The position numbers were made by a program, and so were the translations under genes. DNA of 64,000 nucleotides from Candidatus Doudnabacteria bacterium (GTDB taxonomy: Bacteria; Patescibacteriota; Doudnabacteria; UBA920), in the NCBI GenBank assembly GCA_003151625.1, contig PLYC01000013.1, forward strand, positions 29,210-93,209. Direction: 5' to 3'. Shown here piece by piece: positions 26,142 through 62,372 of the stretch. The notes below the pieces were generated by a model, which searched no databases, was not told where the DNA came from, and saw nothing but the letters and a program-made list of their open reading frames with translations. How positions within the stretch are numbered: position 1 is the stretch's first letter; each line of letters opens with the position of its first letter.

Positions 26142-28470
26142 TCAAAGAATCTCTTGTACCACCCCTTGAACAGTATCGCCCTCCTCGGGTGTTATTGGCA
26201 TATGGCTTTTGTTTGTGCTTTTGGGTAAAAGTATTCTACGCCCACCCTTTTTATTATACATTTTAATTGTTACATTATCACCCAGCAAAGAAACAACCCT
26301 ATCTCCCGAATAAGCTTTTATTTGTTGCCGACACAAAACTAAATCACCGTCCTCAATTCCGGCCAAATTCATTGAATCCCCGCTAGCTCGTAGTACAAAA
26401 TAATTATAACCAGACTTTATTTTAGTCGCGTTAACGTCAATGTAACCTTCGGTATTTTCTTCTGCATAAAAAGGATTACCACATGGTGCCATGCCTAATA
26501 TCGGTACCCTAAATGTTTTTTTGACAAATTCTTCCACAAGCTGTTTAAATGGTTGCTTTTCGTGCGAAACATCAAAACCCTCTAGTCGACTTTTAAAATA
26601 TTTTTCAGTTTCTTTATTTGTAAAATATACGTAACAGCCTTTCATTCCTCGCGACATAAGAACACGGTAAATATTTTTTACATGTTTTTCAAAATTTTCT
26701 TTATTCCTTTTTAACATCGGATCAGACGTTGCTTTTATGTCAGCTTCGAGTTTACTTTTTTCTGGATTGTATATTAAATCGTCCCCAACTATAACGCCAA
26801 TATAATCAAATTCAAAACCTTGGGCAGTGTATATACAGCCAACTTGCTTAATCCCTTCTGGTTTGTATGCCCACTCAAACCATTTTGCGTAACCTGTTGG
26901 TGGCTTGATTTTATCATGGGTCTCCCAAGGCATTGAAAAATTTCCTATTTTTACATCTTTTACCAATTCTCCTTTTTCGTCTAATTCTTGCGACCATGGC
27001 CAACAGAAGCCGGCTACAAGACGAGCAAAATTTCCTTTTTTTGGATTTTCTTTCTTCCCCATTTTTTCTTTCTCTAAAAGTACAGCATATAAATCCTCAG
27101 GCGTGTCAAAAATTTTAAAATCGAACTTTTCCGTTTTTGAAAGCATTAACCTTTCTTGACTATATCCGAGCGTTGATTCCAGCCAGCTTAAATAATTATT
27201 TGATCCCATGCAACGAAATTGAGTTTCTAGAGTTATTTCGTCTATAGAACAATTAAATTTTTTTGCCGTTTCTCTAATGAGCTCTACGCTTCCTATCTCA
27301 AGTGACCTTATATTTTGCATATCATCAATAAAAAAGACCGATGTTTTTGCAAAACGAATTATTTGATCAATTTGTGGCATATCCGTTCGATGTTCGCGAG
27401 GTGTAAACTGATTATTGCTAGTTTTTCCAATTCTATGTGCTTCGTCAATCAATACTAAATCTCCCTCATTTTCCTTAACCTTTGACGGAATAAACCTATT
27501 TAAATTGGAAATTAATTTTTCTGCTTCTCCGCCCACTAAATTTACAAGGCCGCTAATAAAAGGCTTCGATTTACAAGCATAAAATGCTTTTAAATTTCTT
27601 TTTGTTGCTTCTGCTAAAATATTTAAAGCTATTACAGATTTTCCTGTACCGGGACCGTCGTGTATAATTATGACTGCTTTTTTTTTCTTTTTGTGTCTTT
27701 CTTATCTTTGACCAAATTACATTTTTTGCTACAAGTTGCTCATTTAGTAAAGAAAAAACTGCTTCATTAGAAATTATTTTTGAAACATTTTCCAAGAGTT
27801 TTTTTGAAGGTGTTATAGGACTTTGCATAAATCTATTAAACACCTCGAATCCGTCACCTTTTGAAAGAAGATATTTTATCTTGTCTGCTAATAATTGGGT
27901 ATCATTTTTTGTATAAATAGGAAAATCTCTAACGATATCTTTATAGATAGGTGCAAAAAGGCCCTCATCATCTTGTTTGGGGTAATTATGACAATATGCG
28001 CAACTAAATAGACAAAGAGGTTGGTTCGTCTCAAATTCTGCAATAAAACTTTTTAAATATCCTTCATAACCTTTTACCTGTTGTGATGGATGTGGGACTA
28101 TCCTTGTATTACCGCCTGTATATGTCTCAACGAAGTTACCTTCATCTTCAAGGGTTTGAACACTTGACCATTGTTTTAATTCTATAAGGACAGTATTGTC
28201 ATTATCTGCCTCGTCTTTACCAAAAAGTAAACAATCAATTCTGTTTTGATTGTATGGTACTTCATATTCGAGTGCGACATTAATGTCTTGTAAATCTGCT
28301 ATTTCAATCAAATCCTTAACTCTTGGTAAAGAATTTTGCCAGGAATTAATTTGGCTTTGCCCCGACCTTACTCCAAAAGAAGCCAAAAAAGCGTCGGACA
28401 TTTTATCTGTAAGAACGTTATTTCTAATATCATTACAGAAAGTTTTGGCATCAGCTTTGTATATCAACAT
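26142..28470 (-). pseudogene. DUF2075-family nuclease/helicase fused to C-terminal LexA-like S24 peptidase domain; frameshifted in an A9 tract
   Basis: Upstream ORF (27571-28470) has the DUF2075 N-domain (EYEVPYNQNRIDCLLFG...VLIELKQW). The P-loop IIHDGPGTGKSVIALNIL lies in another frame and is restored by a -1 shift in the A9/T9 run at 27678-27686. The downstream ORF has DLVLIDEAHRI, a UvrD-like YTAQGFEFDY motif, and a C-terminal S24 domain (VLRASGDSMNLAGIEDGDLVL...TIKMY). Confidence 0.7.
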
Positions 28471-31430: not shown

Positions 31431-31523
31431 CGTAGAGCGAGTGTCCCGCCAAGGCGGGACCGAGCCGAGGAGCTAATACAGGTTCTATACCTCGCAGCTC
31501 TGCTCCGAGGAACCTTTATTTTT
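31431..31523 (+). ncRNA. structured ~110-nt element, copy 2
   Basis: Same conserved 5' and 3' blocks as copy 1 with a different internal hairpin (GTCCCGCC aa GGCGGGAC); terminator CCTCGCAGCTCTGCTCCGAGG plus T-run; minus-gene stop TAA at 31516-31518 lies inside the T-run. Confidence 0.4.
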
Positions 31524-36175: not shown

Positions 36176-36282
36176 ATTCGCGACGTAGGCGAGACAAAGT
36201 AATGCCTTAAGGTATTACTTTGCGAGCCGAGGAGCTAAGAAAGGTTCAATACCTCGCGGCTTGCCCCGAGGAACCTTTATTT
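36176..36282 (+). ncRNA. structured ~110-nt element, copy 3
   Basis: Conserved blocks with a third internal hairpin (CAAAGTAATGCC ttaa GGTATTACTTTG); terminator plus T-run; minus-gene stop TAA at 36277-36279 lies inside. Confidence 0.4.
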
Positions 36283-40760: not shown

Positions 40761-40860
40761 TTTCGTCCTATCCCCGGCTCTATAAATAGGAGCTGGGGGT
40801 TTTTGTTATTGAACCTAAAAAGTGTTAAAATAAAGGAAATCTTTAAATACTACTAATAAG

Positions 40861-43800
40861 ATGGCTTCCGATTCAACGTCAATAACAAATGAAGGTCAGA
40901 ACACGCTCTCGGCGGCGTTAAAGGATATTTTGCCAAATTGTGACAGAGTTGACGCGCTCGTCGGGTATTTTTATTTTTCTGGTTTTCGGGATCTGCATAA
41001 AGAACTTCAGAGCAAAAAGATCCGAATTCTCGTAGGTATGGATATAGATAGGAAAATGATAGAAAAGATTTCTACTTTGAAGGATGCCAATCTTGACTCT
41101 TATCTCACGGATTCAAAAATTTCGTCGCGGGCAGGCGTAAAAGAAAATTATTTTGAGATTTTTTCTCGTGTTTTTAACGATACTGATTATTTTGATGATA
41201 CAGAAGCCCAAGAAGCTTTTAAGAGTTTTTTGGAGAAAATCAAAGACGGAAGTTTGGAAATTAAGAAGTCGGCTAAAGCGAATCATTCGAAGTATTATAT
41301 CTTGCACAATAAACCAGAGCTTTCAGCGAATGGCAGAACGCCAGGCGTTATTGTCACAGGTTCGAGCAACCTAACACTATCAGGGCTTAAGGGGCAAGGA
41401 GAAAATAATATAATCTTGCAGGAAAAGCATTACTACGATGACCACTTCAAACGATTTGAGGAACAATGGAATGATCCAGAAAATATCGGGATTGCAGATA
41501 TAAATTCTGCTGATGAATTTATACAAGAAGTAAAACAGAGGGTTTGGCTTTATGCCCTACCGAAACCTCTCCATATGTTTTATAGGGTTCTTGATGAGTA
41601 TTTTTCAGTAGACGATGTGGAAGATAGAAAGTCACCAGAAGAAATTACTTCCGGTAAATTCTATAACTTAAAATATCAACGGGATGCAATAAATTTAGGA
41701 ATTGACAGAATTGAGAAATTCGGAGGAGTTATTATTGCGGATGTTGTAGGCCTAGGTAAAAGCATTGTCGCATCAGCCATTGCTCATAATCTTAATTTGC
41801 AGACAGTTATTATTGCCCCTCCACACCTTGAAAGTCAGTGGAAAGATTATATGTCTGATTTCGACTTCAAGGGTCAGGTGTATTCAACTGGAAAAATTAA
41901 AGAAGCACTTGAGCGACACGGAAGCGAGGGTGGAAAGTTATTGATAATTTTAGATGAAGCTCACAAGCATAGAAACGAAGATACTGATAATTATATTCTG
42001 CTTCATAAACTTTGCGCGGGCAATCGAGTTATGGCTCTTTCCGCTACTCCTTTTAACAATGACCCAAGGGACATTTATGCCCTTATAAAATTGTTCAGCA
42101 CTCCCGGTCAATCCACTTTAAAAACTGTGGAAAATTTAAGTATGTCATTTCATCAGCTTTTCAAAAGTTATCGTGCGTTAAGAAGGAGTATGCGCCAGAG
42201 CGGGAAGAAGCAAGATGAAAGCGGTGTTGAGGAAATAACCAAGCGCAGTCAAGAAATCGCAAATGAATTACGGAAGATGATTGAACCACTGGTCATTCGC
42301 CGTTCAAGGTTGGATTTGGACGAGATTGAGGTTTATAGAAAAGATTTGAAAGAGCAAAATATTTCGTTTCCAAAAGTTAAAGACCCGGAATTACTTGAAT
42401 ATAAACTAGGCGAAATATCTGATCTGTATATAAGTACGTTAGAAAAAATTGCATCTGATGAGGAGCGAGCAAGTTTTCTCGGCACAAGATATAAATCTGC
42501 TAATTATATTCGACCGGGTTCGGATTTCTTTACGAAACTCATTGAGCAGGAAGAAACAACTGATGGCGAGTCACCCCAAGAGACTATTCAAAGAATGCAG
42601 CAGGCGCAAGTTAACATAGCCAAATTTATGCGGCGTCTACTAGTGAGGAGATTTGAAAGTTCCATAGCCTCTTTCAAAATCTCACTAAATAACATGATCA
42701 CCTCGTCCGAGCTTATGTTGGACTGGTATCTAAATCGCGGCGAAGTGCCAATCTATAAAAAAGGAGATCTTCCTGACACTACCGATCTTGAAGATATGGA
42801 GCCATCTGAAGCAGAAGCGGCGCTTAATAAGCTAGAGGGCAAAGGACTTATCCTTATTCCAAAAGCTGAAATTGATCCACGTTTTGAAGAACACCTGCGA
42901 CACGATATAGAGTTACTAAAAGGTATTTTGGCAAATTGGGATGGTGTAACAGCAGACCCAAAGTATGAATTCTTTGTTAAGAAAGTTACAGAATCTCTAG
43001 CGAAAGAAAATAAACGAAAGCTTGTTGTATTTACCGAATTTTCGGATACTGCGGATTATATATATGAAAAATTAAAGGCTGATGGTTTGCAACGAATTTT
43101 TAAATACACCTCGGGCGATGCTTCGGAAGCAAACAGAAAAACAATTAAAGCCAACTTTGACGCAAGTTTAGATTTATCAAAACAATCTAATGATTTTGAT
43201 ATTATAGTAGCAACGGATGCAATTTCTGAAGGGTTTAATTTGCATCGAGCAGGGACGGTTATAAATTATGATATTCCCTATAATCCTACACGAGTAATTC
43301 AGCGTGTCGGGCGCATTAATCGTATTAGTCAAAAAGTATTTGACGAACTTTTCATTTGGAACTTCTTCCCTACTCCGACGGGAGAATTTGAGACACATAC
43401 ACGGGCTATTTCTACATTAAAAATGAATATGATTCATTCGCTCCTTGGTGAAGATACGAGGATATTTACTAGCGACGAGGAGTTGAAAAATTATTTTGCA
43501 AAACAGTATACGGAAGAAAATAAAAAATTTGATGGGTCCTCATGGGATGCAAAATACAGGAATATCTGGCTGAATATAAAAGGCAATAAAAAAGTTATGG
43601 ACGAAATTGCCAAGATACCGCGTCGGTCGAGAATTGCTAGGAAATCATTAAAAAATGGTGTTGTCGCATTCGCAAAGAACGGCGGTAGTTATGTTTTCGC
43701 TTATGGAAACACAGCAGAAGATGTGATGGTTATTTCTCCCGAAATTGCCCTACCATTATTTGAAGCTAGTGAGGTCGACAAAGCAGAGGAAACGACAACC

Positions 43801-44163
43801 AGCTTTGAGCCAATATACCAGGTCGCTAAAGATCATATATTTAAGAATAATACTCACGCTTCTGTTACCGGCGGGCGTAAACAAGATGCGCTAGGTAAAT
43901 TAAAAGTGTTATCTGAAATGTATCAACCTGCAAAAGATTTATGTTTAGATGCTATCAAAACCATAAAAGACTTGGATGCTCTTCCGAACGGTATTCTAAA
44001 AGAAATCGCGGAATTATATTTAGATAAGGCAAACCTTGCCAAATCCTATACTATTCTCAAAGAGATGCTACCGCCAAAGTACCTTGAGGATATTTTTACA
44101 ACAGCGAAAAGAGCCGAGGAAACGGCTCGGCTGATTGTGTTGTCTGAAGAGTTAATTGCATGA
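40861..44163 (+). CDS. PLD-like nuclease domain fused to SNF2-family helicase
   Basis: N-terminal HKD-like motif NHSKYYILHN...VIVTGSSNLTLSG; helicase motifs I GLGKS, II ILDEAHKHRN, III LSATPFNN and VI QRVGRINRISQ; ATGA overlap with the next gene. Confidence 0.8.
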   Translation: MASDSTSITNEGQNTLSAALKDILPNCDRVDALVGYFYFSGFRDLHKELQSKKIRILVGMDIDRKMIEKISTLKDANLDSYLTDSKISSRAGVKENYFEIFSRVFNDTDYFDDTEAQEAFKSFLEKIKDGSLEIKKSAKANHSKYYILHNKPELSANGRTPGVIVTGSSNLTLSGLKGQGENNIILQEKHYYDDHFKRFEEQWNDPENIGIADINSADEFIQEVKQRVWLYALPKPLHMFYRVLDEYFSVDDVEDRKSPEEITSGKFYNLKYQRDAINLGIDRIEKFGGVIIADVVGLGKSIVASAIAHNLNLQTVIIAPPHLESQWKDYMSDFDFKGQVYSTGKIKEALERHGSEGGKLLIILDEAHKHRNEDTDNYILLHKLCAGNRVMALSATPFNNDPRDIYALIKLFSTPGQSTLKTVENLSMSFHQLFKSYRALRRSMRQSGKKQDESGVEEITKRSQEIANELRKMIEPLVIRRSRLDLDEIEVYRKDLKEQNISFPKVKDPELLEYKLGEISDLYISTLEKIASDEERASFLGTRYKSANYIRPGSDFFTKLIEQEETTDGESPQETIQRMQQAQVNIAKFMRRLLVRRFESSIASFKISLNNMITSSELMLDWYLNRGEVPIYKKGDLPDTTDLEDMEPSEAEAALNKLEGKGLILIPKAEIDPRFEEHLRHDIELLKGILANWDGVTADPKYEFFVKKVTESLAKENKRKLVVFTEFSDTADYIYEKLKADGLQRIFKYTSGDASEANRKTIKANFDASLDLSKQSNDFDIIVATDAISEGFNLHRAGTVINYDIPYNPTRVIQRVGRINRISQKVFDELFIWNFFPTPTGEFETHTRAISTLKMNMIHSLLGEDTRIFTSDEELKNYFAKQYTEENKKFDGSSWDAKYRNIWLNIKGNKKVMDEIAKIPRRSRIARKSLKNGVVAFAKNGGSYVFAYGNTAEDVMVISPEIALPLFEASEVDKAEETTTSFEPIYQVAKDHIFKNNTHASVTGGRKQDALGKLKVLSEMYQPAKDLCLDAIKTIKDLDALPNGILKEIAELYLDKANLAKSYTILKEMLPPKYLEDIFTTAKRAEETARLIVLSEELIA

Positions 44164-47100
44164 TGAAATTTAATGAAAAATATAACCATGAGAGCTTCCT
44201 TGATTTTTTGAACAATTTTCTCCCTGAAGATTTTTTAGAAAAAGAAGAAGACATTGTTATAAACAAAGAAAGATATAAGGAAATAGCCAAAGCTAAAATA
44301 TTGGGTTTTTCAGAGTGTTTAGATTTATATGTTTTAGAAATGGATCACTCCCGGGAAAATGATCCCAGAATTGCTATTGCAACGGACGCTTTTAAAATAC
44401 TTGCTGACCATTGGATACACAGAGCCCTTGTAGTATTTAAAAATAAAGAATCAGAGAATTATAGACTTTCCTATTTAACCATTTCTCTCGATTTAAATGA
44501 TAAAAATAAAGCTGTAAAAAGATACTCAAATGCTCGTAGATACTCTTTTTATCTTGGCCCTAATGCTAAAATAAACACCCCGACGAAGTTTCTTATTAGC
44601 AAAGGTAAAGTTACTGACTTTGACGATCTGAAAAGTAGATTTTCTATTGAGGTTGTTAATAAAGAATTTTACAAAGAAATATCCCAAGCATTTACTAAAC
44701 TTATTGATGGATTACTTAAGCTCCCTTCGAATGAAGATAAAAATCAGACTAGCATAGAATTTGCGGTTCGTTTAATTGGCAGGATCATCTTTTGCTGGTT
44801 CTTACGCGAAAAAAAAAGCCAAACTGGGTCAGCTTTGATGCCGAAAGAACTATTGTCTCTGTCTGCTGTCCAGGAAAACAGCGACTATTATCACAGGATT
44901 CTTGAACCTATTTTTTTTGAAGTTCTCAATAAGCCTGTTAAATCCAGAATAGATGGTTTTGCCAAGGAGCCTTTTTCCTATGTGCCTTATTTGAATGGTG
45001 GTTTATTTTCACCTCAAGATAACGATTATTACAAACGCATTAATAGCGCTTTTCAATCGCAATATCAAAATAATTTAGTAATTCCTGACGATTGGCTTAA
45101 AGACTTTTTTGAAATCCTTGAGACTTATAATTTCACAATAGACGAAAATACTAGCTTTGATGAAGAACTTTCCATCGATCCGGAGATGCTTGGAAGAATT
45201 TTTGAAAACCTTCTTGCAGAAATAAACCCGGAAACAGGAGAATCTGCGCGTCAAAGTACGGGTAGTTTCTATACACCGAGGACAATTGTAGATTATATGA
45301 TTGACGAAAGTTTGATGCTGTACCTAAAAAATCTAACACAGATTGAAGATAAAAAGCTAAAAGCTATTGTAAGTTATGATTTGAATGATGATGCGGCTAA
45401 TCCACTCAATCTTGATGAGAAGCAAAAAATTGTTGATGCCCTCGAGAGAGTAAAGATACTTGATCCAGCTTGTGGTTCGGGAGCTTTTCCCATAGGTGCT
45501 CTTCAAAAAATAGTTTTCATTCTCCAGCAGGTAGATCCTGATGGGCAAATGTGGTTTACAAAACAAATTCAGAATACATCCCCAGAAATAAAAAGGGTAA
45601 TAGAGCGCGAATTTGCTCATAAGAATTTTGATTATATTAGAAAACTTGGAATTATAAGAGAAAATATCTACGGTATTGATATTCAGTCAATCGCTATAGA
45701 GATATCTCGGCTAAGATGTTTTTTAACCTTAGTTGTCGACGAACGTATACAGGAGGACTTAGATAATAGAGGAATTGAGCCTTTACCAAATTTGGATTTT
45801 AAGTTTGTGGTCTCTAATACTCTTTTTGGTCTTCCAGGATCAGAGTCCTTAAGTCAATCTGAACTGTTCGAAGATGATGCTGGAATACAAGAATTAAAAG
45901 GGCTTAGGGACTTGTTCTTTAATGCTTCTGGGGTTGAACGAGATCAATTACAGCTTAAATTTGTCCAAGCTCAAAATAGAATGTTTCAACGTCTTATTAG
46001 TGAAGGCAGGAGGGGTTTGGGTCAATTAACCACTCAATTAACCACATGGGATCCATTTAGTCACAATCTTTCATCGTGGTTTGATTCTGAATGGATGTTC
46101 GGGATAAAGGACGGCTTTGATATTGTGATTGCTAACCCACCCTACGTATCGACAAAAGGAGTTGAAGAAAATTCAAAAGAACAACTTGAAAATAAATATG
46201 GTTTTGCAGATGACCTGTATTCCCATTTTTATTTTAGAGGTTTTGAACTATGCAAAGGCGGAGGCTTTCTTTCTTATATAACTAGTAAGACCTTCTGGGT
46301 CATTCAAACAAAAAAGAACCTTCGTGAATTATTGCTTAAAAATAATATTATTGATATTTATGATACCGCTAATCCGTTTGAAAGTGTGATGGTAGATACT
46401 TGTGTAGTTCTGGCTCAGAAAGAGAATAGGCAGGAAAATAAAATTAACTTCTTGAAAGCAGATAATGATTATTCGAATCCGATTCGGCTGGAAGTAGATA
46501 AGTCAATTTATGAAAATGCTGTAAATACAGTTATTTTTAGTCCGTCTCATGAAAATCTTGTGATATATCATAAATACAATACTGCAGTGAGTGAACTGAT
46601 GAAAAAATGGTGGCCATTAATCAATACGAGTAAAAATATTACAAAATATGGCACACAGCTAACAAAATACAGAGATAATTTAAAATCAGGAGAGGTTACA
46701 CTTTTAGGGTTAATTACAGATGGTGGACAAGGTCTCGCAACTGCAAACAATGGTAAATATGTTGGCGTGCTTTCCAGCACAAAGGAAGCAGTAAAAATAG
46801 AGGAAGCACGTATTAAGAAGTTTTTTGAATTTGTTACTCAGCGAACAATTAGTGAATATGGAACTAGTAAAGAATCTATTCGGGCAAATTTAAATAAATT
46901 ATCAGAGCAACAACTTCGGGCACTTTTTGATACATTGAAAGATAAATATGGGCAAGATCTTTTCGGAAAAGGATTCCTGTACCGCATCGTTGATTCTAGA
47001 GAGATAAAGAATATAGATAAAATGACTGACAATGAAAAAGAAGACGGCCTAGTTGGTGATCAATCATTTGTACCGTATGATAAAGGAGACAAGGAAGGCA

Positions 47101-47666
47101 ATCGATGGTATGTCCGTACGCCATATTATATTGATTGGAATAAGGTTAATGTAAGTTTTTTAAAAGAAAATACTGGTAAGAAAGGTAAAAATATGCCTGT
47201 TTTTCGAAATCCACAATTTTATTTTAAGGATGGATTCTCGTGGAATCTTATTAACGGGACCAGAACGACTAATGAACTTAAATTTACAATTACGGCACCT
47301 GCCGTAAATGATATGGCCTCGAATAAATTAACTTCCTTACTAGATAATGTATCTAACAAATACATCGCCACTGTTTGTAATTCTAGGTTTATAAACACAT
47401 ACACCGAAAATTTTATAAATTTTACATTAAATTTTCCTCATAATAGCACTCGTCAGGTACCCATAATTATTCCTACTGAAAAACAACTTGTCGACTTTGA
47501 AGATCTGTTTGACCGTGCCTATGCTATAAAAGTTAACCAGTTCGACGGAAAAATTACCGAGACTGCCGCAGGTCTAAAACTTCAAGAAATCCAAGAAGAA
47601 TTAGATGAAAAAGTGTTAAAACTTTATGGCCTCACGTCCGAGGAGGTAGAGATTGTAAAAAATTAA
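44160..47666 (+). CDS. N6-adenine DNA methyltransferase, Eco57I/PglX-like (1168 aa)
   Basis: Motif I LDPACGSGAF; motif IV IANPPYVS; large N- and C-terminal extensions. Confidence 0.8.
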   Translation: MMKFNEKYNHESFLDFLNNFLPEDFLEKEEDIVINKERYKEIAKAKILGFSECLDLYVLEMDHSRENDPRIAIATDAFKILADHWIHRALVVFKNKESENYRLSYLTISLDLNDKNKAVKRYSNARRYSFYLGPNAKINTPTKFLISKGKVTDFDDLKSRFSIEVVNKEFYKEISQAFTKLIDGLLKLPSNEDKNQTSIEFAVRLIGRIIFCWFLREKKSQTGSALMPKELLSLSAVQENSDYYHRILEPIFFEVLNKPVKSRIDGFAKEPFSYVPYLNGGLFSPQDNDYYKRINSAFQSQYQNNLVIPDDWLKDFFEILETYNFTIDENTSFDEELSIDPEMLGRIFENLLAEINPETGESARQSTGSFYTPRTIVDYMIDESLMLYLKNLTQIEDKKLKAIVSYDLNDDAANPLNLDEKQKIVDALERVKILDPACGSGAFPIGALQKIVFILQQVDPDGQMWFTKQIQNTSPEIKRVIEREFAHKNFDYIRKLGIIRENIYGIDIQSIAIEISRLRCFLTLVVDERIQEDLDNRGIEPLPNLDFKFVVSNTLFGLPGSESLSQSELFEDDAGIQELKGLRDLFFNASGVERDQLQLKFVQAQNRMFQRLISEGRRGLGQLTTQLTTWDPFSHNLSSWFDSEWMFGIKDGFDIVIANPPYVSTKGVEENSKEQLENKYGFADDLYSHFYFRGFELCKGGGFLSYITSKTFWVIQTKKNLRELLLKNNIIDIYDTANPFESVMVDTCVVLAQKENRQENKINFLKADNDYSNPIRLEVDKSIYENAVNTVIFSPSHENLVIYHKYNTAVSELMKKWWPLINTSKNITKYGTQLTKYRDNLKSGEVTLLGLITDGGQGLATANNGKYVGVLSSTKEAVKIEEARIKKFFEFVTQRTISEYGTSKESIRANLNKLSEQQLRALFDTLKDKYGQDLFGKGFLYRIVDSREIKNIDKMTDNEKEDGLVGDQSFVPYDKGDKEGNRWYVRTPYYIDWNKVNVSFLKENTGKKGKNMPVFRNPQFYFKDGFSWNLINGTRTTNELKFTITAPAVNDMASNKLTSLLDNVSNKYIATVCNSRFINTYTENFINFTLNFPHNSTRQVPIIIPTEKQLVDFEDLFDRAYAIKVNQFDGKITETAAGLKLQEIQEELDEKVLKLYGLTSEEVEIVKN

Positions 47667-48968
47667 ATGACCCAAGGATACGTACTTAAAATCCCATTCG
47701 GCAGGCGTGCTATTTTTGCAGATAATATCGACGGTCAATTCGCTCAGCCCGTTCCAAGTTTTTCCCATGGCCGTGGCTCACCACTTGTGGTTTTTATCTC
47801 TGCAGAAGAAGGATGTATCACTCATTTAGCAACGGGGCGTCCGGGCGTAAACGCGGGGACTGATCTACGAAGATTAAACTTAGAAGAAATTCATGTCCCA
47901 CAAACACCTTTACGATTTGCAGATATCTTAGAATATGTTCCTGCCAACGTACGGCGACATATTGCTAGTGTATTTGAACGCGGTGGAGTCTTACCGCCAG
48001 GAAGCTTTACTGGAGTAGTGGGCGCTATTCACGAACTAGACCCAAATATTAGTCCATTACTAACGCGATATGGGGTAGGGCGTGCAGAGGCAATTGCAAA
48101 TTTACCTTTACGTGCTCGTGAGTCGTTAGCCGCACAAAAAGAAGCCGTGAATACGGCTCTGGGTTTAGCTAACTTTGATCGGAAGCCTCTACTTGAGTGG
48201 ACTCCTAGTCCAACCGAGCAACGCACTTCATTTCTTGATGGATTGCCACAAGCATACTTACGAGAAGATCTCATGATTTTAAATGACCTGAATCATATTC
48301 CTGGGTTAAACCATATTAGGTCTTCAATTACCAGCACTGCACGTTTTGAGGGGCAAGGTGTAAGGTTGGATGTTATTTTGGCGAACCGCATGCGCCTAGA
48401 AGAACAAACAGGTGCAGACCTTATTTATTATAATGCAACATATCAGTCATTTGTTATGGTTCAATATAAGGCCATGGAGCAGGTTGAGAACGAGCATGGT
48501 CCCTCGTTTAGGCTTCCTAATTCTCAGCTGAACGCTGAAATTTTTCAAATGGATCGATTGATTGAGCAATTGAGGCCAGCCTCGCCCCCGTCTAACCGTG
48601 ATGAGTATCGTTTTACTGAAAACCCTTTTTTTATAAAGTTGTGCCCTAGAATTATATTAGATCCAGATAATGTTGATCTAACACCAGGTATGTATTTCTC
48701 GCGAGATCATTGGCGCTTTCTTGAGGTTGATACTGATTTAGTTGGTCCTCGTGGTGGTCACAAAATTACCTATCAAAATATGCGGAGGTACCTCAATAAC
48801 ACACAGTTTGCTGACCTCGTGCAAAATGCTTGGGTTGGAACGACACCCGCGCAGAGCTCCATGCTGGAGGCAATCATCTCAGAAATCCTTCAAGAGGGAA
48901 AAGCAGTAATTATTGCCATAAAATCAAAAATCGAAATACAACTCACAGAAACAGAAGATAATTTATAA
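47667..48968 (+). CDS. hypothetical protein (433 aa), third gene of operon
   Basis: Start ATG directly follows the methyltransferase TAA; possible D...QxK segment GADLIYYN...FVMVQYK; no confident family. Confidence 0.5.
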   Translation: MTQGYVLKIPFGRRAIFADNIDGQFAQPVPSFSHGRGSPLVVFISAEEGCITHLATGRPGVNAGTDLRRLNLEEIHVPQTPLRFADILEYVPANVRRHIASVFERGGVLPPGSFTGVVGAIHELDPNISPLLTRYGVGRAEAIANLPLRARESLAAQKEAVNTALGLANFDRKPLLEWTPSPTEQRTSFLDGLPQAYLREDLMILNDLNHIPGLNHIRSSITSTARFEGQGVRLDVILANRMRLEEQTGADLIYYNATYQSFVMVQYKAMEQVENEHGPSFRLPNSQLNAEIFQMDRLIEQLRPASPPSNRDEYRFTENPFFIKLCPRIILDPDNVDLTPGMYFSRDHWRFLEVDTDLVGPRGGHKITYQNMRRYLNNTQFADLVQNAWVGTTPAQSSMLEAIISEILQEGKAVIIAIKSKIEIQLTETEDNL

Positions 48969-49086: not shown

Positions 49087-49120
49087 AAAAGACCGTGGCT
49101 ATTTTGGCCACGGTCTTTTT
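49087..49120. terminator. bidirectional hairpin terminator
   Basis: AAAAGACCGTGGC tatttt GCCACGGTCTTTTT. Confidence 0.65.
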
Positions 49121-49524: not shown

Positions 49525-50193
49525 ATGCACCAAATACAAGAAAAGTTATTAGAGCTGTCAAAAAGTCAAAATTTGGCTAAATTAAGCCTTAGAGATATGG
49601 CAAAGGCTATAGATTTACCTTTAGAATCCCCTCAAAAAATTAAGCACCATTTATTACAGCTTCAAAAAAAAGGTTTTTTGACGATTGATAGGGTAAAAGG
49701 CTTAATGGATAGAGCCGTAGATACGCCTATGTGGGCTTCAAAATTACTTAAAAAGACTACGAAGTTATTTTCTATCCCAATTATTGGCATGGCCAATTGC
49801 GGCCCGGCAGAAATCTTTGCAGAGCAAAATTTTCAAGGGTTTTTAAAAGTTTCCAGTAGGCTAATTCACCGTTCAAAGCCCGATGGCCTCTATGCCATAA
49901 AAACAGATGGCTCATCTATGAACCGAGCAGAAATAAACGGAAAACGAATAGAAGATGGGGATTTCGTAATTGTGGACGGGGAAGATAGGAACGCAGAAAC
50001 CAACAATGTTGTTTTGGCTATTATTGATAATAAAGCTACAATCAAAAGACTTATACATGACACTCAAAATGGGCAAGTTGTTTTAAAAGCAGATTCGTCC
50101 TTTGACTACGAACCTATTTATCTGCACCCAGACGACAACTTTTTTATAAATGGTAAGGTGGTGGATGTAATAAAAAAACCGATGAAAAATTAA
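49525..50193 (+). CDS. LexA-like repressor (HTH plus S24 peptidase)
   Basis: N-terminal winged-helix; C-terminal GSSMNRAEINGKRIEDGDFVIVD...ATIKRL Ser/Lys dyad region; possibly leaderless. Confidence 0.75.
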   Translation: MHQIQEKLLELSKSQNLAKLSLRDMAKAIDLPLESPQKIKHHLLQLQKKGFLTIDRVKGLMDRAVDTPMWASKLLKKTTKLFSIPIIGMANCGPAEIFAEQNFQGFLKVSSRLIHRSKPDGLYAIKTDGSSMNRAEINGKRIEDGDFVIVDGEDRNAETNNVVLAIIDNKATIKRLIHDTQNGQVVLKADSSFDYEPIYLHPDDNFFINGKVVDVIKKPMKN

Positions 50194-50206
50194 TACAACT
50201 AAAATT

Positions 50207-51256
50207 ATGGCATACGAAGTAGACTATATGCCGGTTGGTGAAGGAGAAAAAAGCGGCGACGCCATCGTCTTACGCTTTGGCAATCTCACAGGACCGCGTG
50301 AACAACAAACAGTTATCGTTATTGATGGGGGCTACCAGGAATCTGGCGAGCTACTTGTTAACCATATTAATGAGCATTATGGGACAAACGAAGTTAATTA
50401 TGTTATTTTAACCCATCCTGATATAGATCACGCCTCCGGCCTTTGTGTTGTTCTTGAGAAAATGAAAGTTGGGGCACTTATTATGCATAAGCCATGGGAA
50501 CACGCGGAAGATATAAAAAGCTTATTTCAAAATGGTAAAATAACCGCATCTGGCTTACAAGACAAAATTGAAAAGTCGCTTCAGCACGCTAGTGATTTAG
50601 AGTCTATGGCTCAAAAAAAAGGTATCCCAATTTACGAGCCCTTTGAAGGCACCTATTTAGATAATGTTTTTCACGTTCTTGGCCCTTCAAAAGATTATTA
50701 TCAAAGCCTACTGCCTCATTTTAAAGATATGCCAGCACCCAAGATAAGCCTTGGAGCATTTGCACCTATTTTTAGAAAAGCTGAAGAAGTCGCGAACTGG
50801 ATTCAAGATCATATAGGCATAGACTTGCTCGATGATGATAACGACACAACCTCCGCAAGTAATAATACTAGCGCAATTATAGTTTTTGTCATCGATGGTC
50901 ACAAACTACTTTTTACCGGTGACGCTGGAAAAACAGCTTTACTTAATGCCATAGCTTATGCTGACAGTAAAGGGTTTTCACTTACTGACCTTAATTTTTT
51001 AGATGTGCCTCATCATGGGAGTAAGCGTAATCTCAGCAGTAAAATATTGAAAAAAATTAAAGCAACAACCGCTTTTATTTCAGCCCCAACGGATTCTCCC
51101 AAACATCCTGCAAAAAGAGTAACCAATGCTTTAAGAAAGCATGGTCATTCAGTTTATGTTACTCGTGGAAAATCAATTCTTCATCATAACCAAGGTAATG
51201 CGAGGGGGTGGGGAGATATAGAGTCAGAGCCCTTCCATGATAGATTTGAAGAATAA
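50207..51256 (+). CDS. MBL-fold metallo-hydrolase
   Basis: LTHPDIDHASG metal-binding motif; later HHGS; about 350 aa. Confidence 0.65.
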   Translation: MAYEVDYMPVGEGEKSGDAIVLRFGNLTGPREQQTVIVIDGGYQESGELLVNHINEHYGTNEVNYVILTHPDIDHASGLCVVLEKMKVGALIMHKPWEHAEDIKSLFQNGKITASGLQDKIEKSLQHASDLESMAQKKGIPIYEPFEGTYLDNVFHVLGPSKDYYQSLLPHFKDMPAPKISLGAFAPIFRKAEEVANWIQDHIGIDLLDDDNDTTSASNNTSAIIVFVIDGHKLLFTGDAGKTALLNAIAYADSKGFSLTDLNFLDVPHHGSKRNLSSKILKKIKATTAFISAPTDSPKHPAKRVTNALRKHGHSVYVTRGKSILHHNQGNARGWGDIESEPFHDRFEE

Positions 51257-51965
51257 AAATATTACCGCTATGTTTGAAAAGATTAAAGAAAATTTTGATG
51301 ATTATAATTTAAAAGCAAGGGTTTACCCGAGCCTAATAGCATTGGCTCCATTTTTTTTACTTGCCTATATTCTTATAAAAAATCAAGCAGGTCTTAATAT
51401 AATTGCGAGCTTGGCCAGTAGCTCATTGATAACAATGCTTTTACTATTTTTCATTTCTGATATTGTAAGAAATTTAGGAAAATTTCTAGAATCGAAAGTA
51501 TTTGGTAATGAGTTGTATTTCCCCACCACGGAAATTTTGTTGCACATAAATACGTATTTAACAGCCGAAAAAAGGCTTAAAATTTACGACAAGATCAGAA
51601 GCGACTTCCAATTTTCTCTTGCTACGGAAGTAGAAGAAAAAAACAATGAGAACCTCGCAAGGCAAAAGATAAAAGAAGCCGTAGGATTAGTTAGACAAAA
51701 AGTTACAAATGGAAGATTATTGCTTCAATTTAATATAAGATACGGGTTTTGGAGAAACCTAATAGGAGCCTCCCTATTTTCGTGCGCTTTTTGTATAGTA
51801 GACTTAGTTATTTTTTTACTATTTTATACAAGCTTTGCTAGTTCGTTTATAGCACTGATTTTATTTTTATTCTATTTATCAATTTTTTTATTTAGAAAGT
51901 TGTTGCTCAAGTTTTTTGGTTTTCAATATGCTGAACAGTTATTTTTGGAGTACCTAACTAAATAA
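51237..51965 (+). CDS. membrane protein
   Basis: 242-aa ORF with multiple TM helices. Confidence 0.45.
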   Translation: MIDLKNKNITAMFEKIKENFDDYNLKARVYPSLIALAPFFLLAYILIKNQAGLNIIASLASSSLITMLLLFFISDIVRNLGKFLESKVFGNELYFPTTEILLHINTYLTAEKRLKIYDKIRSDFQFSLATEVEEKNNENLARQKIKEAVGLVRQKVTNGRLLLQFNIRYGFWRNLIGASLFSCAFCIVDLVIFLLFYTSFASSFIALILFLFYLSIFLFRKLLLKFFGFQYAEQLFLEYLTK

Positions 51966-53540: not shown

Positions 53541-53661
53541 GCCCGTCAAGGGTAAAACCTCTTTATCTGCCGTAAGCCATAAATCGGTTTTAATCCCGTT
53601 GACCGCCAAAACATTCCAGAGTTTTTTTGCTTGCCATAATAAGTAAGCAAAAAGGAGTTTT
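53541..53661 (+). promoter_or_regulatory. conserved ~120-bp leader (copy 1) upstream of RadC-like gene
   Basis: Shares GTCAAGGGTAAAACC...GGTTTTAATCCCGTTGAC.GCC...CCATAATAA.TAAGCAAA.AAAGGAG with 56121-56242. Confidence 0.45.
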
Positions 53662-54144
53662 ATGGAATATCAAGTAAATATTAGCTACCAGTTTAAAGCT
53701 GATAGCGACAACGAAGCTAACGAAAAAGCCAAAAGCTATATTAGCCAGAATTTGCAGGTTAAAGCTATTAAGGACGGCGTTTACAGCCCTTTGGAAATAG
53801 CCTCAAAGTGCAAGAATTTCAGGAAAGCTAAAAAAGAACACTTTTGCGTCTTTTTCCTGGATACCCAAAACAGGATTCTTGGCAAAGAAACCGTCAGCAT
53901 TGGCACATTAAACACAAGCCTGATTCATCCCAGGGAGTGTTTTAGGACTGCTATATTAAAAAATTCTGCTTCTGTAATTTTCGTCCACAATCATCCAAGC
54001 GGGGGTTTAGAGCCGTCAGCGGAAGATCTTAATGTTACCAAGCGGTTAAAAGATGCCGGGAAACTCCTTGGCATAGAAGTTTTAGACCACGTGATTGTAA
54101 CAACTGATTCTCACACCAGTTTGAAGGAACGACATTTATTATAA
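53662..54144 (+). CDS. RadC-like JAB domain protein (short form)
   Basis: HNHPSGGLEPSAEDLNVTKRL; paralog of the C-terminal half of 33717-34381. Confidence 0.8.
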   Translation: MEYQVNISYQFKADSDNEANEKAKSYISQNLQVKAIKDGVYSPLEIASKCKNFRKAKKEHFCVFFLDTQNRILGKETVSIGTLNTSLIHPRECFRTAILKNSASVIFVHNHPSGGLEPSAEDLNVTKRLKDAGKLLGIEVLDHVIVTTDSHTSLKERHLL

Positions 54145-55897: not shown

Positions 55898-56120
55898 TCA
55901 GAACCTCCTGTTTCGTTGTATTTCACTCCTGTTTGCACAGTGAGTGTCCCAGATTAAGGGAAAATTGAGCAGAAAACTAGAAATTTCCACGCACTTTTCC
56001 CCTAACATTGGAACTTACTATTTTACTGTTTTTATTATGTTTTGTCAAAGCCCAAAAATACACCAAATGTACTTTTCCTTTGCTTTCTTATGGCTTTCCA
56101 TTTTACTGACCGTTTACGGC

Positions 56121-56242
56121 CGGTCAAGGGTAAAACCAATTTATTTCCCGTAGGGCATAAAAAGGTTTTAATCCCGTTGACTGCCATAACCTGCGGCCAG
56201 TTCTCCGGAGTCCATAATAATTAAGCAAAGAAAGGAGTTAAT
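56121..56242 (+). promoter_or_regulatory. conserved ~120-bp leader (copy 2)
   Basis: See 53541-53661; precedes RBS AAAGGAG and ATG 56243. Confidence 0.45.
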
Positions 56243-59615: not shown

Positions 59616-62372
59616 TTAAACTGATTCCGACTGGATGTCTCCCCTATCCGGCGCGGCAGCAGTCTTTTTTTTGTTCATGGCTTTGTTAAATTGCTCTTCG
59701 TTGTCGCTTGAGTAATATATGGAGTTTACAGCAGTGCGCTCCCAAACAATATCGTCTTGGGGTGTGCCGTATTTGTCCATAGCCTGGGATATGTAATAGT
59801 CTTCGGTTTCTTTGGCGTTGTCCGTGTGATGTTCGGTTTTTTGGATGTTTATGGACATAGCGTCCTGCGGCACGCCCTTAACCAGGGTTTTAATGTATGC
59901 CGTACCCGTGGGCAGATTAATAATGTCCTCAACCAAAGCCTTGCCGCCTAAAATCTTTTCGGCGATCTCGGCGTCATCTACCGACTGGGTGCGCATAAAG
60001 ATTTTAGTGGCAATGTTGGATTCTATGGATTTTTGTATTCTTTGGTCCAACTGGCCCATAAATTGGTTACTAATAACTAATGCCGTGTTAAAAGCCCTGA
60101 CTTCGGAAAACAGAGTTTCAAAAATATCACTGGCCACCCTTTGGAATTCGTCTACTACAAAAACCGTCGGTTTTCTCTGCTCGCTAGCCAGTCTGGCTTG
60201 GCCAAAGATAGCCTCGGCAATATGAGCGGTTAGGTAGACAGAATAGTACTTTTTCATCTGTTCGCTGGAAGAGCCTAAATTGGCGATAAATATCTTGCCC
60301 GTGTTAATCATGTCCTCAAAAGATATTTTGGCTTCTTTTCGGTCTACAATATTCATAAACTCCGGGTAGTCCAGGAATTTGCCCAGCTTGTTGTTAGTGG
60401 TGGCCAAGTATTTGGCCAAGTCATTATTACTACGCTTTAAAATTGAGGTAGACCAAAAGTTTTGTAAGCGTGGGGGCAAATAGGCTATCAGTCTGCCAAT
60501 TTGCTCGGGCTGGTGAAGGAGCATGTCCAAACCGGACAGTGATTGTTCCGGCAAAATGTAGGCCGTGGCAAATAATTGCCTTAAGATGTTTTCCAGTTCC
60601 GGCCCCCAGGAGTAGGCGGAGTCAATTTGCACAAACCGTTTCATTATGGAGATTAAAAATTCCAGTTTTTCCTCGTCGGTTTTGCTGCCGGAAAACTTGG
60701 AAAAAAACGGAAAAGCCAAAGGCCTGTCTTTTTGCCTTTGGGGATTAAAGTAAATCACATCAGCTTTCCTGCTCTCGGGAATCATAGTTAATAAGTCCGT
60801 GGCAAAGTCGTTTTTGGGGTCGACAATCAACATGGCGGGTTTTTCGCCACCTTGTTTCTGTAAAAGACTGTGGAGAATAGTTTTTAGGGTTTCCGACTTT
60901 CCCGCTCCTGTGCCGCCTAAGATGTAGATGTGCTTTTTCATATCGTCCCAGGTGGCTATGCCGATGGGGGTTTCGTCTTGCATACGGAAGTTAGACTTCC
61001 CCAAGGACAGGAAAAAGTTGTCGGGATATCTTCTGATTTGCTGACTGGCAGGGAGTTTTTTAAAACGGGTAAGGTTAATGGAGGAAACAGTTTCCTCCTG
61101 GGTATTGGGCAAATGCCAAAAGGAGTAAAGCTCGCCGTCCGAAATCATCTGCCCGTAGTTTATGAATTTGGCAAAGGGCCACAGTAAAAATCGTCTTAAG
61201 CGGAGCACCGGCTTGGCGGCAACTATATCTGTCAGCCAGCCATTTTTCTCTAGATTGTCCACCTGTTTCGTAAATAGCAGCCTGTGCTTTAAGGTATTCA
61301 TATTTTTTTGGTTCAGTTCGGCCAGTGTACCCTGGATACTGCGGAGTTTGGCCTTTGACTCCTGGGGGTTGTCTGCTACGGTCCAGTAGGAAACTATTGT
61401 CTGAAACAGCGGGGCTTTCATTTTTTCAATCATGGCGCTGTTCAAGGAATTGGCCAGTTCCGAACCGGCTCCCCACTTTTGGATGGCAAATTTTTTGTCG
61501 CTTTGGTTTACGGCCCCTTGCTGTTCCTGCTCCTCAATGAGATAGTGGATTATTTGGTTAAAATAATGGGAGGAGGGAGAAACCAGGACATTGTAAACCA
61601 TAAATTGGCCTTTCTTCAGGCCTTCCATAACTGAGATAATGGAATCTACGGGGTCGCTGGAAACGTCTTTAAAAGTTTTAACTCTATGGAAAAACTTGCC
61701 TTCTATGGTAGTTTCCCCATAACTTAAAAACCCTTGTGGAAACTCTGTAAGTTCCTCAAGGGCTTTATCTTTGTCCAGCATTGTTATTTCCGCGCTTGGG
61801 TAGGCGTTAAAAATGGCCTTTTCCACGCGCTCAAAGTCCTTGCCCGGCACCTGGAGCCTAAAGGAGATAAAGGGGTGCTGGGCCCAGATTTGCATGCTGA
61901 AAAATATCTGTCTGGAACGCTTAACCTTCCAGATCCGCCACAGCTTTTGGAAGAAGTAGATAAAGCCAAATGTGCTGGAAAAATTATGCGCGCCCTCCAC
62001 CGGGTCAATGTATATGGCGTGGAAGGCTTTAAGGATTTTTTGCTGGATTTGAAAAGCCGTGGCTTGGGAGTTTTTGGGGATGGTAATTTCAAAATACAGG
62101 CTGGTGTCCAGCCATGCTTCCAAATCTTTTTTCTTTAGCTTTATCTTTTCAAAAGAGTGGCGGTTAAAGCCCGGAAGTTTGTCAAAAACGAACATGAAGA
62201 ACAAAATCGTAATGCCTATCCAGCCAGCGATATTTTCCCAAAACGGCATTCGGCTGAAATAGTAAGTCCACATGATTTGGCCCATAGTCATCGGGCCGTG
62301 AGGCGTGGTAAAGACATGTTGAAAGACATCAGTTGTGGCTGGATGAGATACAATATGATGTACTACTGCCAT
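59616..62372 (-). CDS. conjugation/T4SS-type P-loop ATPase (VirD4/TraG/TcpA-like coupling protein or VirB4-like)
   Basis: N-terminal TM helices; Walker A ILGGTGAGKSETLKT; Walker B TVFVVDEFQRV; 918 aa. Confidence 0.6.
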   Translation of the reverse strand: MAVVHHIVSHPATTDVFQHVFTTPHGPMTMGQIMWTYYFSRMPFWENIAGWIGITILFFMFVFDKLPGFNRHSFEKIKLKKKDLEAWLDTSLYFEITIPKNSQATAFQIQQKILKAFHAIYIDPVEGAHNFSSTFGFIYFFQKLWRIWKVKRSRQIFFSMQIWAQHPFISFRLQVPGKDFERVEKAIFNAYPSAEITMLDKDKALEELTEFPQGFLSYGETTIEGKFFHRVKTFKDVSSDPVDSIISVMEGLKKGQFMVYNVLVSPSSHYFNQIIHYLIEEQEQQGAVNQSDKKFAIQKWGAGSELANSLNSAMIEKMKAPLFQTIVSYWTVADNPQESKAKLRSIQGTLAELNQKNMNTLKHRLLFTKQVDNLEKNGWLTDIVAAKPVLRLRRFLLWPFAKFINYGQMISDGELYSFWHLPNTQEETVSSINLTRFKKLPASQQIRRYPDNFFLSLGKSNFRMQDETPIGIATWDDMKKHIYILGGTGAGKSETLKTILHSLLQKQGGEKPAMLIVDPKNDFATDLLTMIPESRKADVIYFNPQRQKDRPLAFPFFSKFSGSKTDEEKLEFLISIMKRFVQIDSAYSWGPELENILRQLFATAYILPEQSLSGLDMLLHQPEQIGRLIAYLPPRLQNFWSTSILKRSNNDLAKYLATTNNKLGKFLDYPEFMNIVDRKEAKISFEDMINTGKIFIANLGSSSEQMKKYYSVYLTAHIAEAIFGQARLASEQRKPTVFVVDEFQRVASDIFETLFSEVRAFNTALVISNQFMGQLDQRIQKSIESNIATKIFMRTQSVDDAEIAEKILGGKALVEDIINLPTGTAYIKTLVKGVPQDAMSINIQKTEHHTDNAKETEDYYISQAMDKYGTPQDDIVWERTAVNSIYYSSDNEEQFNKAMNKKKTAAAPDRGDIQSESV

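Follow-up and report, generated by a model that had tools for sequence, protein, structure and literature searches.

Organization of the operon

The DNA analyzed here, referred to throughout as the window, is a stretch of 64,000 nucleotides from a Candidatus Doudnabacteria bacterium (assembly GCA_003151625.1, contig PLYC01000013.1, positions 29,210 to 93,209 of the forward strand), and the subject of this study is a compact group of three genes on its + strand at 40861–48968. An initial annotation, made from the sequence alone, had put this group forward as a candidate restriction-like or anti-restriction system. The three open reading frames (ORFs), here called genes 1, 2, and 3, and the signals that flank them are arranged as follows.

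40770–40800, + strand: terminator-like hairpin 5′ of gene 1 (by pattern match)
40803–40831, + strand: promoter-like site, TTGTTA-17 nt-TAAAAT with a TG, 30 nt 5′ of the gene 1 start (by match to consensus)
40861–44163, + strand: gene 1, ORF of 1100 amino acids (aa), phospholipase D (PLD)/HKD nuclease-SNF2 motor
44160–47666, + strand: gene 2, ORF of 1168 aa, gamma-class N6-adenine DNA methyltransferase
47667–48968, + strand: gene 3, ORF of 433 aa, member of a family without annotation
49087–49119, unstranded: G+C-rich hairpin with a 13-bp stem and A and T runs on either side, bidirectional terminator-like, 119 nt past the gene 3 stop (by match to consensus)

The ORF table and the junction sequences place the three ORFs and both of their junctions exactly where they had been reported. 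The gene 1/gene 2 junction reads GCATGATGAAA and contains an ATGA overlap (44160–44163), and the gene 2/gene 3 junction reads AATTAAATGACC, in which TAA is followed directly by ATG (47664–47669). Because a hairpin and a promoter-like site precede gene 1 and a strong hairpin follows gene 3, a single transcript spanning genes 1–3 appears plausible from these signals. The accompanying statement that the operon stands next to “the TIR” found no support: neither a TIR-domain gene nor a terminal inverted repeat was found adjoining it. An ORF of 91 aa located 5′ of gene 1 was not counted in the system, being without relatives in any locus retrieved. A near-identity DNA search with the operon gave no match in 72,556 plasmids, 50,697 phages, and E. 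coli genomes.

Domain content of genes 1 and 2

Gene 1 matches three Pfam domains in succession: PLDc_2 (residues 52–203, 5e-10), SNF2-rel_dom (361–497, 4e-12), and Helicase_C (708–822, 3e-18). In an alignment of 26 homologs, the single HKD motif (H142-x-K144 with GSSN at 167–170) is invariant, as are the motor motifs, namely Walker A (GLGKS, 297–301), DEAH (365–368), SATP, and motif VI (QRVGR, 814–818); the N-terminal HKD-type PLD motif and the SNF2 motifs that had been read from the sequence are therefore secure. Beyond the recognized domains, the region from ~870 to 1100 forms a conserved C-terminal part. More than 6,000 relatives were found at E < 1e-30, the nearest of them mostly from bacteria of the candidate phyla radiation (CPR); the protein from Candidatus Giovannonibacteria is identical at 92.6% of its amino acids and the two genes at 79% of their DNA. 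The top matches of gene 1 among PADLOC and NCBIfam models are DrmD models, and the HmaA model matches it over Helicase_C only. Two further candidates were set aside: the PADLOC match “C3a139 HKD+Snf2” is the name of a type III CRISPR-accessory cluster (PMC6546367) and denotes no defined system, and SauUSI was not returned as a direct relative by phmmer against the PDB.

Gene 2 matches Eco57I (2e-29), N6_Mtase, MmeI_Mtase, and MmeI_hel in Pfam. Motif I (DPACGSGAF, residues 434–442) is followed by motif IV (NPPY, 658–661), and both are conserved in 54 homologs, which together with the Pfam matches confirms the gamma-class motifs for N6-methyladenine (m6A) formation noted earlier; these features make gene 2 a gamma-class m6A methyltransferase with the scaffold of an MmeI/Type IIL-like enzyme. 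Its residues 1–135 have a restriction-endonuclease-like fold, behind which lies a helical spacer (~140–330). Across the 54 homologs the D...(D/E)xK triad is not conserved within residues 1–135, and there are no invariant acidic residues: D55 occurs in 44/54 and E60 in 35/54, position 62 is D, K, E, N, or T, and a distant clade carries K at the expected lysine position with the glutamate missing. On this account, gene 2 would be Type IIL-like but with a nuclease of its own that has degenerated, cutting being delegated to the PLD domain of gene 1.

Past residue ~750, the column conservation of gene 2 drops from 0.5–0.75 to 0.14–0.35 (54 homologs), a collapse expected of a target-recognition domain under diversifying selection, and the hypervariable C-terminus from this point on is a putative domain of that kind. 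The Giovannonibacteria counterpart is 65% identical over residues 1–714, and its C-terminus is unrelated to that of gene 2 except for a weak segment of 24% identity near the C-terminal end. Gene 2 also matches PglX and DrmMI models of PADLOC and NCBIfam, below their cut-offs. On one IMG/VR contig (L175), short gene-2-like fragments lie on both strands 3′ of the gene-2 homolog; they look like a shufflon of target-recognition domains (phase-variable specificity), as reported for Eco57I-type methylases.

A conserved gene pair and a variable third slot

Conservation of the operon was surveyed by pattern-based scans that gathered up to 80 loci each, with neighboring genes called by a simple longest-ORF routine. 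A metagenome scan with a gene-1 profile gave 79 loci whose gene-1 homologs range from 93% to 30% identity; the gene-3 set holds 80 loci (78 non-redundant), mostly from GTDB species genomes. A gene-2 homolog lies directly 3′ of the gene-1 homolog in 57 of the 62 metagenomic loci that have a downstream ORF, and the ATGA overlap of 4 nt is common to most of these pairs over the whole range, from 93% down to 30% identity. Viral-labelled contigs (2.9 million) contained 12 gene-1 loci at 41–67% identity, and the pair is kept in 10/11 of these. In CPR genomes the gene 1-gene 2 pair is set among housekeeping genes.

What follows the pair, in contrast, varies from locus to locus. The ORF after gene 2 is anywhere between 91 and 1165 aa long or is encoded on the opposite strand, and the 36 distinct third-slot genes that were scanned include those for Ppl-like ATPases, an AbiP2/DRT reverse transcriptase, a prokaryotic Argonaute (pAgo)-associated (Aga) TIR protein, Shedu SduA, a CBASS cyclase, PDC-M50A, PDC-S42, proteases, and helix-turn-helix proteins, as well as many unknowns. 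At the Giovannonibacteria locus, the gene-2 homolog stands next to gene 1 with the identical 4-nt overlap, and the product of the third gene, an ABC-type ATPase of 904 aa with a match to the Ppl model, is unrelated to gene 3; the comparison as a whole shows the mosaic pattern by which restriction systems typically evolve. Gene-3 relatives are absent from the 79 metagenomic gene-1 loci (0/79), and the gene 1-gene 2 pair from the 78 gene-3 loci (0/78). The frequency of pairing (57/62) and the variety of the third gene therefore indicate that, as far as sequence comparison can define it, the conserved functional unit is two genes and the 3′ end is a slot for unrelated defense cargo. The earlier proposal that the three genes make up one system is not upheld: it gives way to a conserved two-gene core with an interchangeable third position.

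None of the curated models scanned (PADLOC v2, NCBIfam) captures the gene 1-gene 2 pair, a very common one, as a system. No paper that defines or tests it was found in the literature searched, where it is mentioned only in passing: a coding sequence for a PLD-SNF protein adjoins Cj0031-like Type IIG genes in a table of inversion loci (PMC9881135).

Gene 3 belongs to a large family with a predicted reader-nuclease architecture

Scans of gene 3 against Pfam, PADLOC v2, and NCBIfam returned zero matches, in keeping with the initial annotation, which had recognized no family in it. The family is nevertheless large: a word-indexed search gave >841 matches, all unnamed, and among 1.84 billion cluster representatives (50% identity) there are 1786 at E <= 1e-3, 848 of them at E <= 1e-30. 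Among the 150 matches listed, nearly all are ~420–480 aa long, fragments aside, and no fused domains were seen. Within GTDB, Candidatus Zambryskibacteria has the nearest relative (67%). The segment tentatively described as PD-QxK is real, since E245, D251, Q266, and K268 are invariant in 40 homologs.

In the AlphaFold2 model of gene 3 (mean predicted local distance difference test, pLDDT, 79.6; predicted template-modeling score, pTM, 0.75), E245 lies on a helix, D251 opens a strand, and Q266-x-K268 lies on the next strand. The N-terminus (~1–125) is modeled as beta-rich, with pLDDT mostly 77–96 and a helical linker behind it. Foldseek searches with gene 3 returned ASCH, EVE-like, and McrB N-terminal domains with a probability of 0.9–0.99 and E ~1e-2, and the defense proteins among its closest structural neighbors are readers of DNA modification (VcaM4I and McrB N-terminal domains). 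Going by secondary structure, the PUA-like matches would belong to the N-terminus and the nuclease matches to residues 220–330, and the N-terminal domain (~1–125) is predicted, with modest scores, to be PUA-like (YTH/EVE/ASCH-like). At the sequence level, similarity of gene 3 to EVE, YTH, ASCH, and SRA profiles was undetectable, a sequence-profile search of the family against the PDB gave chance matches only, and when all 40 family members were scanned against Pfam at E <= 5, the only matches were scattered nuclease ones below threshold (YhcG_C, Mrr_cat, DUF4365, and RecC_C).

Because a PUA-superfamily sensor combined with a nuclease is an established architecture of modification-dependent restriction enzymes (PMC6765204, PMC7897488), the model makes gene 3 a candidate for a Type IV-like nuclease that depends on DNA modification and arrived as cargo. 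If this is true, its family (~1,800 representatives) would be a candidate new Type IV-like defense gene for defense-finder tools. The END nucleases (PMC12191111) were considered as relatives and rejected, as they carry an inactive EndoIII sensor and not a PUA-like fold.

Genomic contexts of gene-3 relatives

The 78 non-redundant gene-3 loci present a wide spread of contexts. BREX type 3-like operons house the homolog in 11/78, in the order BrxC/PglY, gene-3 homolog, small protein, PglXI, BrxHII, PglZ; an HsdM-family gene is in the cluster in 4/78, and one such locus, examined fully, has the Type I arrangement hsdS-homolog-hsdR; and PglW and PglX of BREX type 2 adjoin the homolog in 1/78. OLD-like AAA_21/TOPRIM proteins are neighbors in 13/78, often together with UvrD-like helicases, and a GHKL ATPase of ~620 aa is encoded 5′ of the homolog in 9/78; SIR2-HerA, DUF6119, HipA, Schlafen, and AbiEi genes are found next to others. 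Another 16/78 have zero same-strand neighbors within 150 nt. No gene-3 relative was found in the 2.9 million viral contigs. This spread is the behavior of an autonomous embedded defense gene, comparable to that of GmrSD/BrxU (bioRxiv 10.1101/2024.01.29.577857; PMC12839542), and judged by its contexts gene 3 is an autonomous defense gene that is often embedded in other systems.

Two of these arrangements have features of their own. In the BREX type 3-like loci (L002, L018, L019, L027, L043, L074), a small gene regularly lies between the gene-3 homolog and PglXI; its product is either a protein of 219–222 aa without a family match or a 251-aa SfsA-like protein (OB fold and nuclease), and gene 3 of the present operon is without this small partner. 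The GHKL (HATPase_c) ATPase of ~620 aa precedes the gene-3 homolog in loci L001, L019, L039, L042, L049, L051, L054, L056, L062, L063, and L078, sometimes with an AbiEi-like regulator between the two; the ATPase and the gene-3 homolog may make up a two-gene system of their own, with this nuclease at its center.

Comparison with known systems

The initial annotation had likened the locus to DISARM class 1 without DrmA and DrmB and, through PglX, to BREX without BrxC and PglZ, and both likenesses stand together with the absences. In DISARM class 1, too, an SNF2 helicase (DrmD) occurs with an m6A methyltransferase (DrmMI) and a PLD nuclease (DrmC), whereas here the PLD domain is fused to SNF2, the defining DrmA and DrmB (DUF1998) were not found in the window, and gene 1 stays far below the cut-offs of the DrmD equivalogs (161.6 bits for NF038317, cut-off 610; 85.4 for NF038318, cut-off 950). 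For BREX, the window holds no ORF of a size or family that fits the BrxC/PglY ATPase or PglZ, and gene 2 scores 137.5 bits against the BREX-1 PglX model (cut-off 500) and lower against other PglX models. The ORFs of >= 500 aa in the window, genes 1 and 2 aside, encode a P-type ATPase, an HlyD-like protein, a type IV secretion coupling protein, and a 519-aa product without matches.

Type ISP enzymes (LlaGI, LlaBIII) contain the same set of activities, i.e., nuclease, superfamily 2 (SF2) translocase, gamma-class m6A methyltransferase, and C-terminal target-recognition domain (PMC3874165); by analogy, asymmetric sites, methylation of one strand, and ATP-driven translocation before cleavage (PMC3874165) would be expected here too. 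They are, however, single polypeptides with an Mrr-like PD-QxK nuclease, whereas the present locus has two polypeptides, a PLD/HKD nuclease, and an SNF2-type motor. MmeI-family Type IIG/IIL enzymes share the gamma-class m6A methyltransferase (motif I before NPPY) and the C-terminal target-recognition region; gene 2 differs from them and from BREX PglX in an N-terminus without a conserved D...ExK triad and in its PLD-SNF2 partner gene.

The MANTIS (Gao_RL, BR type 2) and Hma (BR type 1) systems likewise pair an N6-adenine methyltransferase with an effector in which an N-terminal HKD/PLD nuclease precedes an SF2 (Swi2/Snf2-like) motor, and gene 1 has this effector layout, with PLDc_2 at 52–203 ahead of SNF2 and Helicase_C and with H142 and K144 invariant. 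In MANTIS, the PLD-SF2 effector works with an m6A methyltransferase (MtsC), an MtsD dimer forms one PLD active site, and the sites are asymmetric and hemimethylated, inverted site pairs being preferred (bioRxiv 10.64898/2026.09.23.753747). MANTIS/Hma systems differ from the locus in requiring a DUF499 (BrxC-like, MtsA) ATPase and, for type 2, DUF3780 (MtsB); neither a DUF499 ATPase nor a DUF3780 protein is in the operon, where the SNF2 protein is the sole ATPase of the three genes. Gene 3 is without a family match and is predicted to have a different fold, and the MANTIS methyltransferase is of the BrxXI type with an inserted recognition domain, whereas gene 2 is of the Eco57I/MmeI/PglX type with a C-terminal one. 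MANTIS/BR/Hma loci are also hotspots of embedded defense genes (PMC12839542; bioRxiv 10.1101/2024.01.29.577857; PMC11232893), and Type IV enzymes and other defenses are commonly embedded in methylation-based systems (bioRxiv 10.1101/2024.01.29.577857).

Gene 3 resembles PUA-type enzymes (VcaM4I/TspA15I, EVE-HNH; YenY4I, PUA-PD-(D/E)xK) in its predicted layout, with a nuclease core behind a PUA-like reader (PMC6765204, PMC7897488), the core motif being intact, and resembles BrxU/GmrSD in being a single autonomous protein that recurs inside BREX and Type I loci. It differs from these enzymes in its linker and C-terminal parts and, from most characterized PUA enzymes, in that its relatives often adjoin methyltransferases. 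The locus is thus restriction-like, as had been proposed, and most likely belongs, as a two-gene form without a name of its own, to the class that joins a motor-nuclease to a methyltransferase, with an unannotated PUA-nuclease family carried as cargo.

Proposed mechanism

The reading that we favor, with a probability of about 0.6, is that of a composite, co-transcribed defense operon in which a two-gene restriction-modification-like module is joined by an add-on Type IV-like nuclease of separate evolutionary origin. It builds on what was observed directly, i.e., the domain content, the catalytic residues, the pairing of genes 1 and 2, the variable slot, and the contexts of gene 3.

Genes 1 and 2 (Module A) would be a two-subunit, ATP-dependent system. 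The variable C-terminus of gene 2 would recognize a short, probably asymmetric site, at which the enzyme would methylate adenine in host DNA, and unmethylated sites on incoming DNA would recruit or license gene 1. If MtsD, SauUSI, and BfiI are a guide, a gene 1 dimer would bring its two single-HKD domains together into one PLD active site, the SNF2 motor would translocate DNA, and the PLD domain would cut. Module A could then be viewed as a Type ISP or Type III enzyme split into two polypeptides, with PLD in the place of the Mrr or PD-ExK nuclease. Gene 3 (Module B) would be an autonomous single-protein nuclease whose PUA-like domain may read a modified base and whose PD-QxK nuclease may be aimed at modified, probably non-m6A, phage DNA; since its relatives recur beside m6A methyltransferases, the target may well be something other than the host m6A mark. 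Module B would cover phages that evade Module A by hypermodification, much as GmrSD/BrxU complements BREX.

Several points weigh against this reading. Gene 3 abuts gene 2 and has the same promoter and terminator, which also fits a true third subunit. PUA-type enzymes that truly depend on modification mostly lie away from methyltransferases (Lutz et al., 2019), and ~20% of gene-3 relatives sit in methyltransferase-containing systems. In MANTIS, loading of the methyltransferase depends on two further proteins, MtsA and MtsB, and two genes may therefore be too few for a self-sufficient system. The surveys comprise 79 and 80 loci from pattern scans with neighbors from a crude ORF finder, and the enzymatic activities, hemimethylation, dimerization, and modification dependence are all properties that we infer.

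If the reading is correct, genes 1 and 2 would couple a PLD motor-nuclease to a sequence-specific m6A methyltransferase in the simplest arrangement known and offer a tractable comparison for the mechanisms of MANTIS, DISARM, and Type ISP. The locus would also be a clear case of a 3′-end “cargo slot” in a methylation-based system, which would back guilt-by-embedding discovery.

Alternative interpretations

Among the other explanations considered, it is improbable that the operon is a genuine three-component system, with gene 3 built into the machine of genes 1 and 2 either as a second nuclease or as a reader of methylation by which the PLD-SNF2 nuclease is licensed or blocked. The TAA-ATG abutment and the single promoter-like site and terminator for all three genes would suit such a machine, as would the reader modules (DUF3780, ASCH/PUA fusions) proposed alongside HKD-SNF2 and methyltransferase in BR type 2/MANTIS (PMC12839542) and the recurrence of gene-3 relatives in m6A-based systems (BREX types 2 and 3, Type I). 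Against it, gene-3 relatives are missing from all 79 gene-1 loci and the pair from all 78 gene-3 loci; elsewhere the slot after gene 2 is filled by unrelated, known stand-alone defenses, and gene-3 relatives are without an operonic neighbor in 16/78 loci.

The odds are similarly low that gene 3 is an abortive-infection or toxin-type effector, whose PUA-like domain responds to a phage protein, to RNA, or to a nucleotide signal and whose nuclease kills or arrests the infected cell. The nearest structural neighbors among defense proteins (VcaM4I and McrB N-terminal domains) read DNA modification, and nuclease cores of the Hjc/RecU/PvuII-type PD-(D/E)xK class act on DNA, both of which speak against such an effector, although RNA binding is known for ASCH and YTH domains and ribonuclease activity is reported for ZmASCH (PMC5615036), a conserved aromatic cage is not visible in gene 3 across 40 homologs, and homologs often stand beside abortive-type modules (OLD-like ATPases, HipA, SIR2-HerA, Schlafen, AbiEi).

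Slightly less probable again is a more general role, in which the gene-3 family is no ordinary Type IV enzyme but a portable nuclease effector of methylation systems; independently of this, the pair could embody a minimal, self-sufficient, loader-ATPase-free form of MANTIS/BREX-related logic. The effector could have been recruited by BREX types 2 and 3, by Type I restriction-modification, and by the PLD-SNF2/methyltransferase pair; it could read the host m6A or hemimethylated mark and cut DNA without that mark or, alternatively, could fire when the partner methylation system is inhibited. If this role is true, it would give a nuclease step to systems such as BREX, for which the way in which restriction works remains under debate.

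Far less credible is a role in anti-restriction or establishment on behalf of a conjugative element (DarB-like or orphan-methylase-like), in which incoming element DNA would be methylated so as to escape restriction by the recipient; the initial annotation had raised the DarB-like possibility. A type IV secretion coupling protein (59616–62372, − strand) and radC genes are close by, and the locus combines a methyltransferase with a helicase; but the PLD catalytic residues are invariant, the specificity region of gene 2 is hypervariable and not broad, the pair sits among housekeeping genes in CPR genomes and is rare in viral contigs, and plasmids and phages (72,556 and 50,697) hold no near match. 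A decayed, non-functional DISARM class 1 or BREX remnant that has lost its core genes is given equally little weight, for although gene 1 best matches DrmD and gene 2 matches PglX and DrmMI, the scores (161.6 vs. 610 bits for DrmD, 137.5 vs. 500 bits for PglX) are far under the curated cut-offs and the two-gene arrangement is conserved with intact ORFs and motifs across a wide range of identity.

The surrounding region

The operon lies among other defense-like genes, in a low-GC stretch (0.34–0.44, vs. 0.42 for the window). The features of the region are the following.

24687–25931, − strand: DUF2130 protein, weak match to PADLOC PDC-S41
26142–27536, − strand: Schlafen-group-3 helicase domain fused to an S24 peptidase
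27571–28470, − strand: NERD-like protein (weak), weak match to PADLOC PDC-S41
31461–31521 and 36223–36282: intergenic direct repeats of ~60 nt, 90–95% identity
33717–34535 (− strand) and 53662–54144 (+ strand): RadC-like JAB-domain paralogs, inverted, with 125-nt arms that are 72% complementary
49525–50193, + strand: S24/LexA-like gene, directly past the operon terminator
50207–51256, + strand: metallo-beta-lactamase-fold gene, matching the PADLOC candidate PDC-M48B over its full length (4e-81)
51237–51965: ORF of 242 aa without matches, overlapping the metallo-beta-lactamase-fold gene
53541–53612 and 56119–56190: intergenic direct repeats of 72 nt, 85% identity
59616–62372, − strand: type IV secretion coupling protein

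The S24/LexA-like and metallo-beta-lactamase-fold genes probably form a second, separate candidate defense module; the best matches of the S24/LexA-like gene are on contigs with close gene-1 homologs. Taken with the CPR affinities of genes 1 and 3, this points either to a CPR bacterium as the host or to a recent exchange of the island with one. The Schlafen-S24, NERD-like, and DUF2130 genes are possibly another defense gene set. The radC pair, the only long inverted repeat, brackets ~20 kb that include the operon, and together with the coupling protein it suggests a conjugative or integrative element, so that the region looks like a defense island on or near a conjugative element.

The segment 38000–40200 has a GC content of 0.50, well above that of the operon and of the genes after it. 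Its only ORF (519 aa, TTG start, − strand) overlaps ORFs on the + strand, and scans of the segment against Pfam, PADLOC, and Rfam gave no match. The two sets of direct repeats could be regulatory sites or element boundaries.

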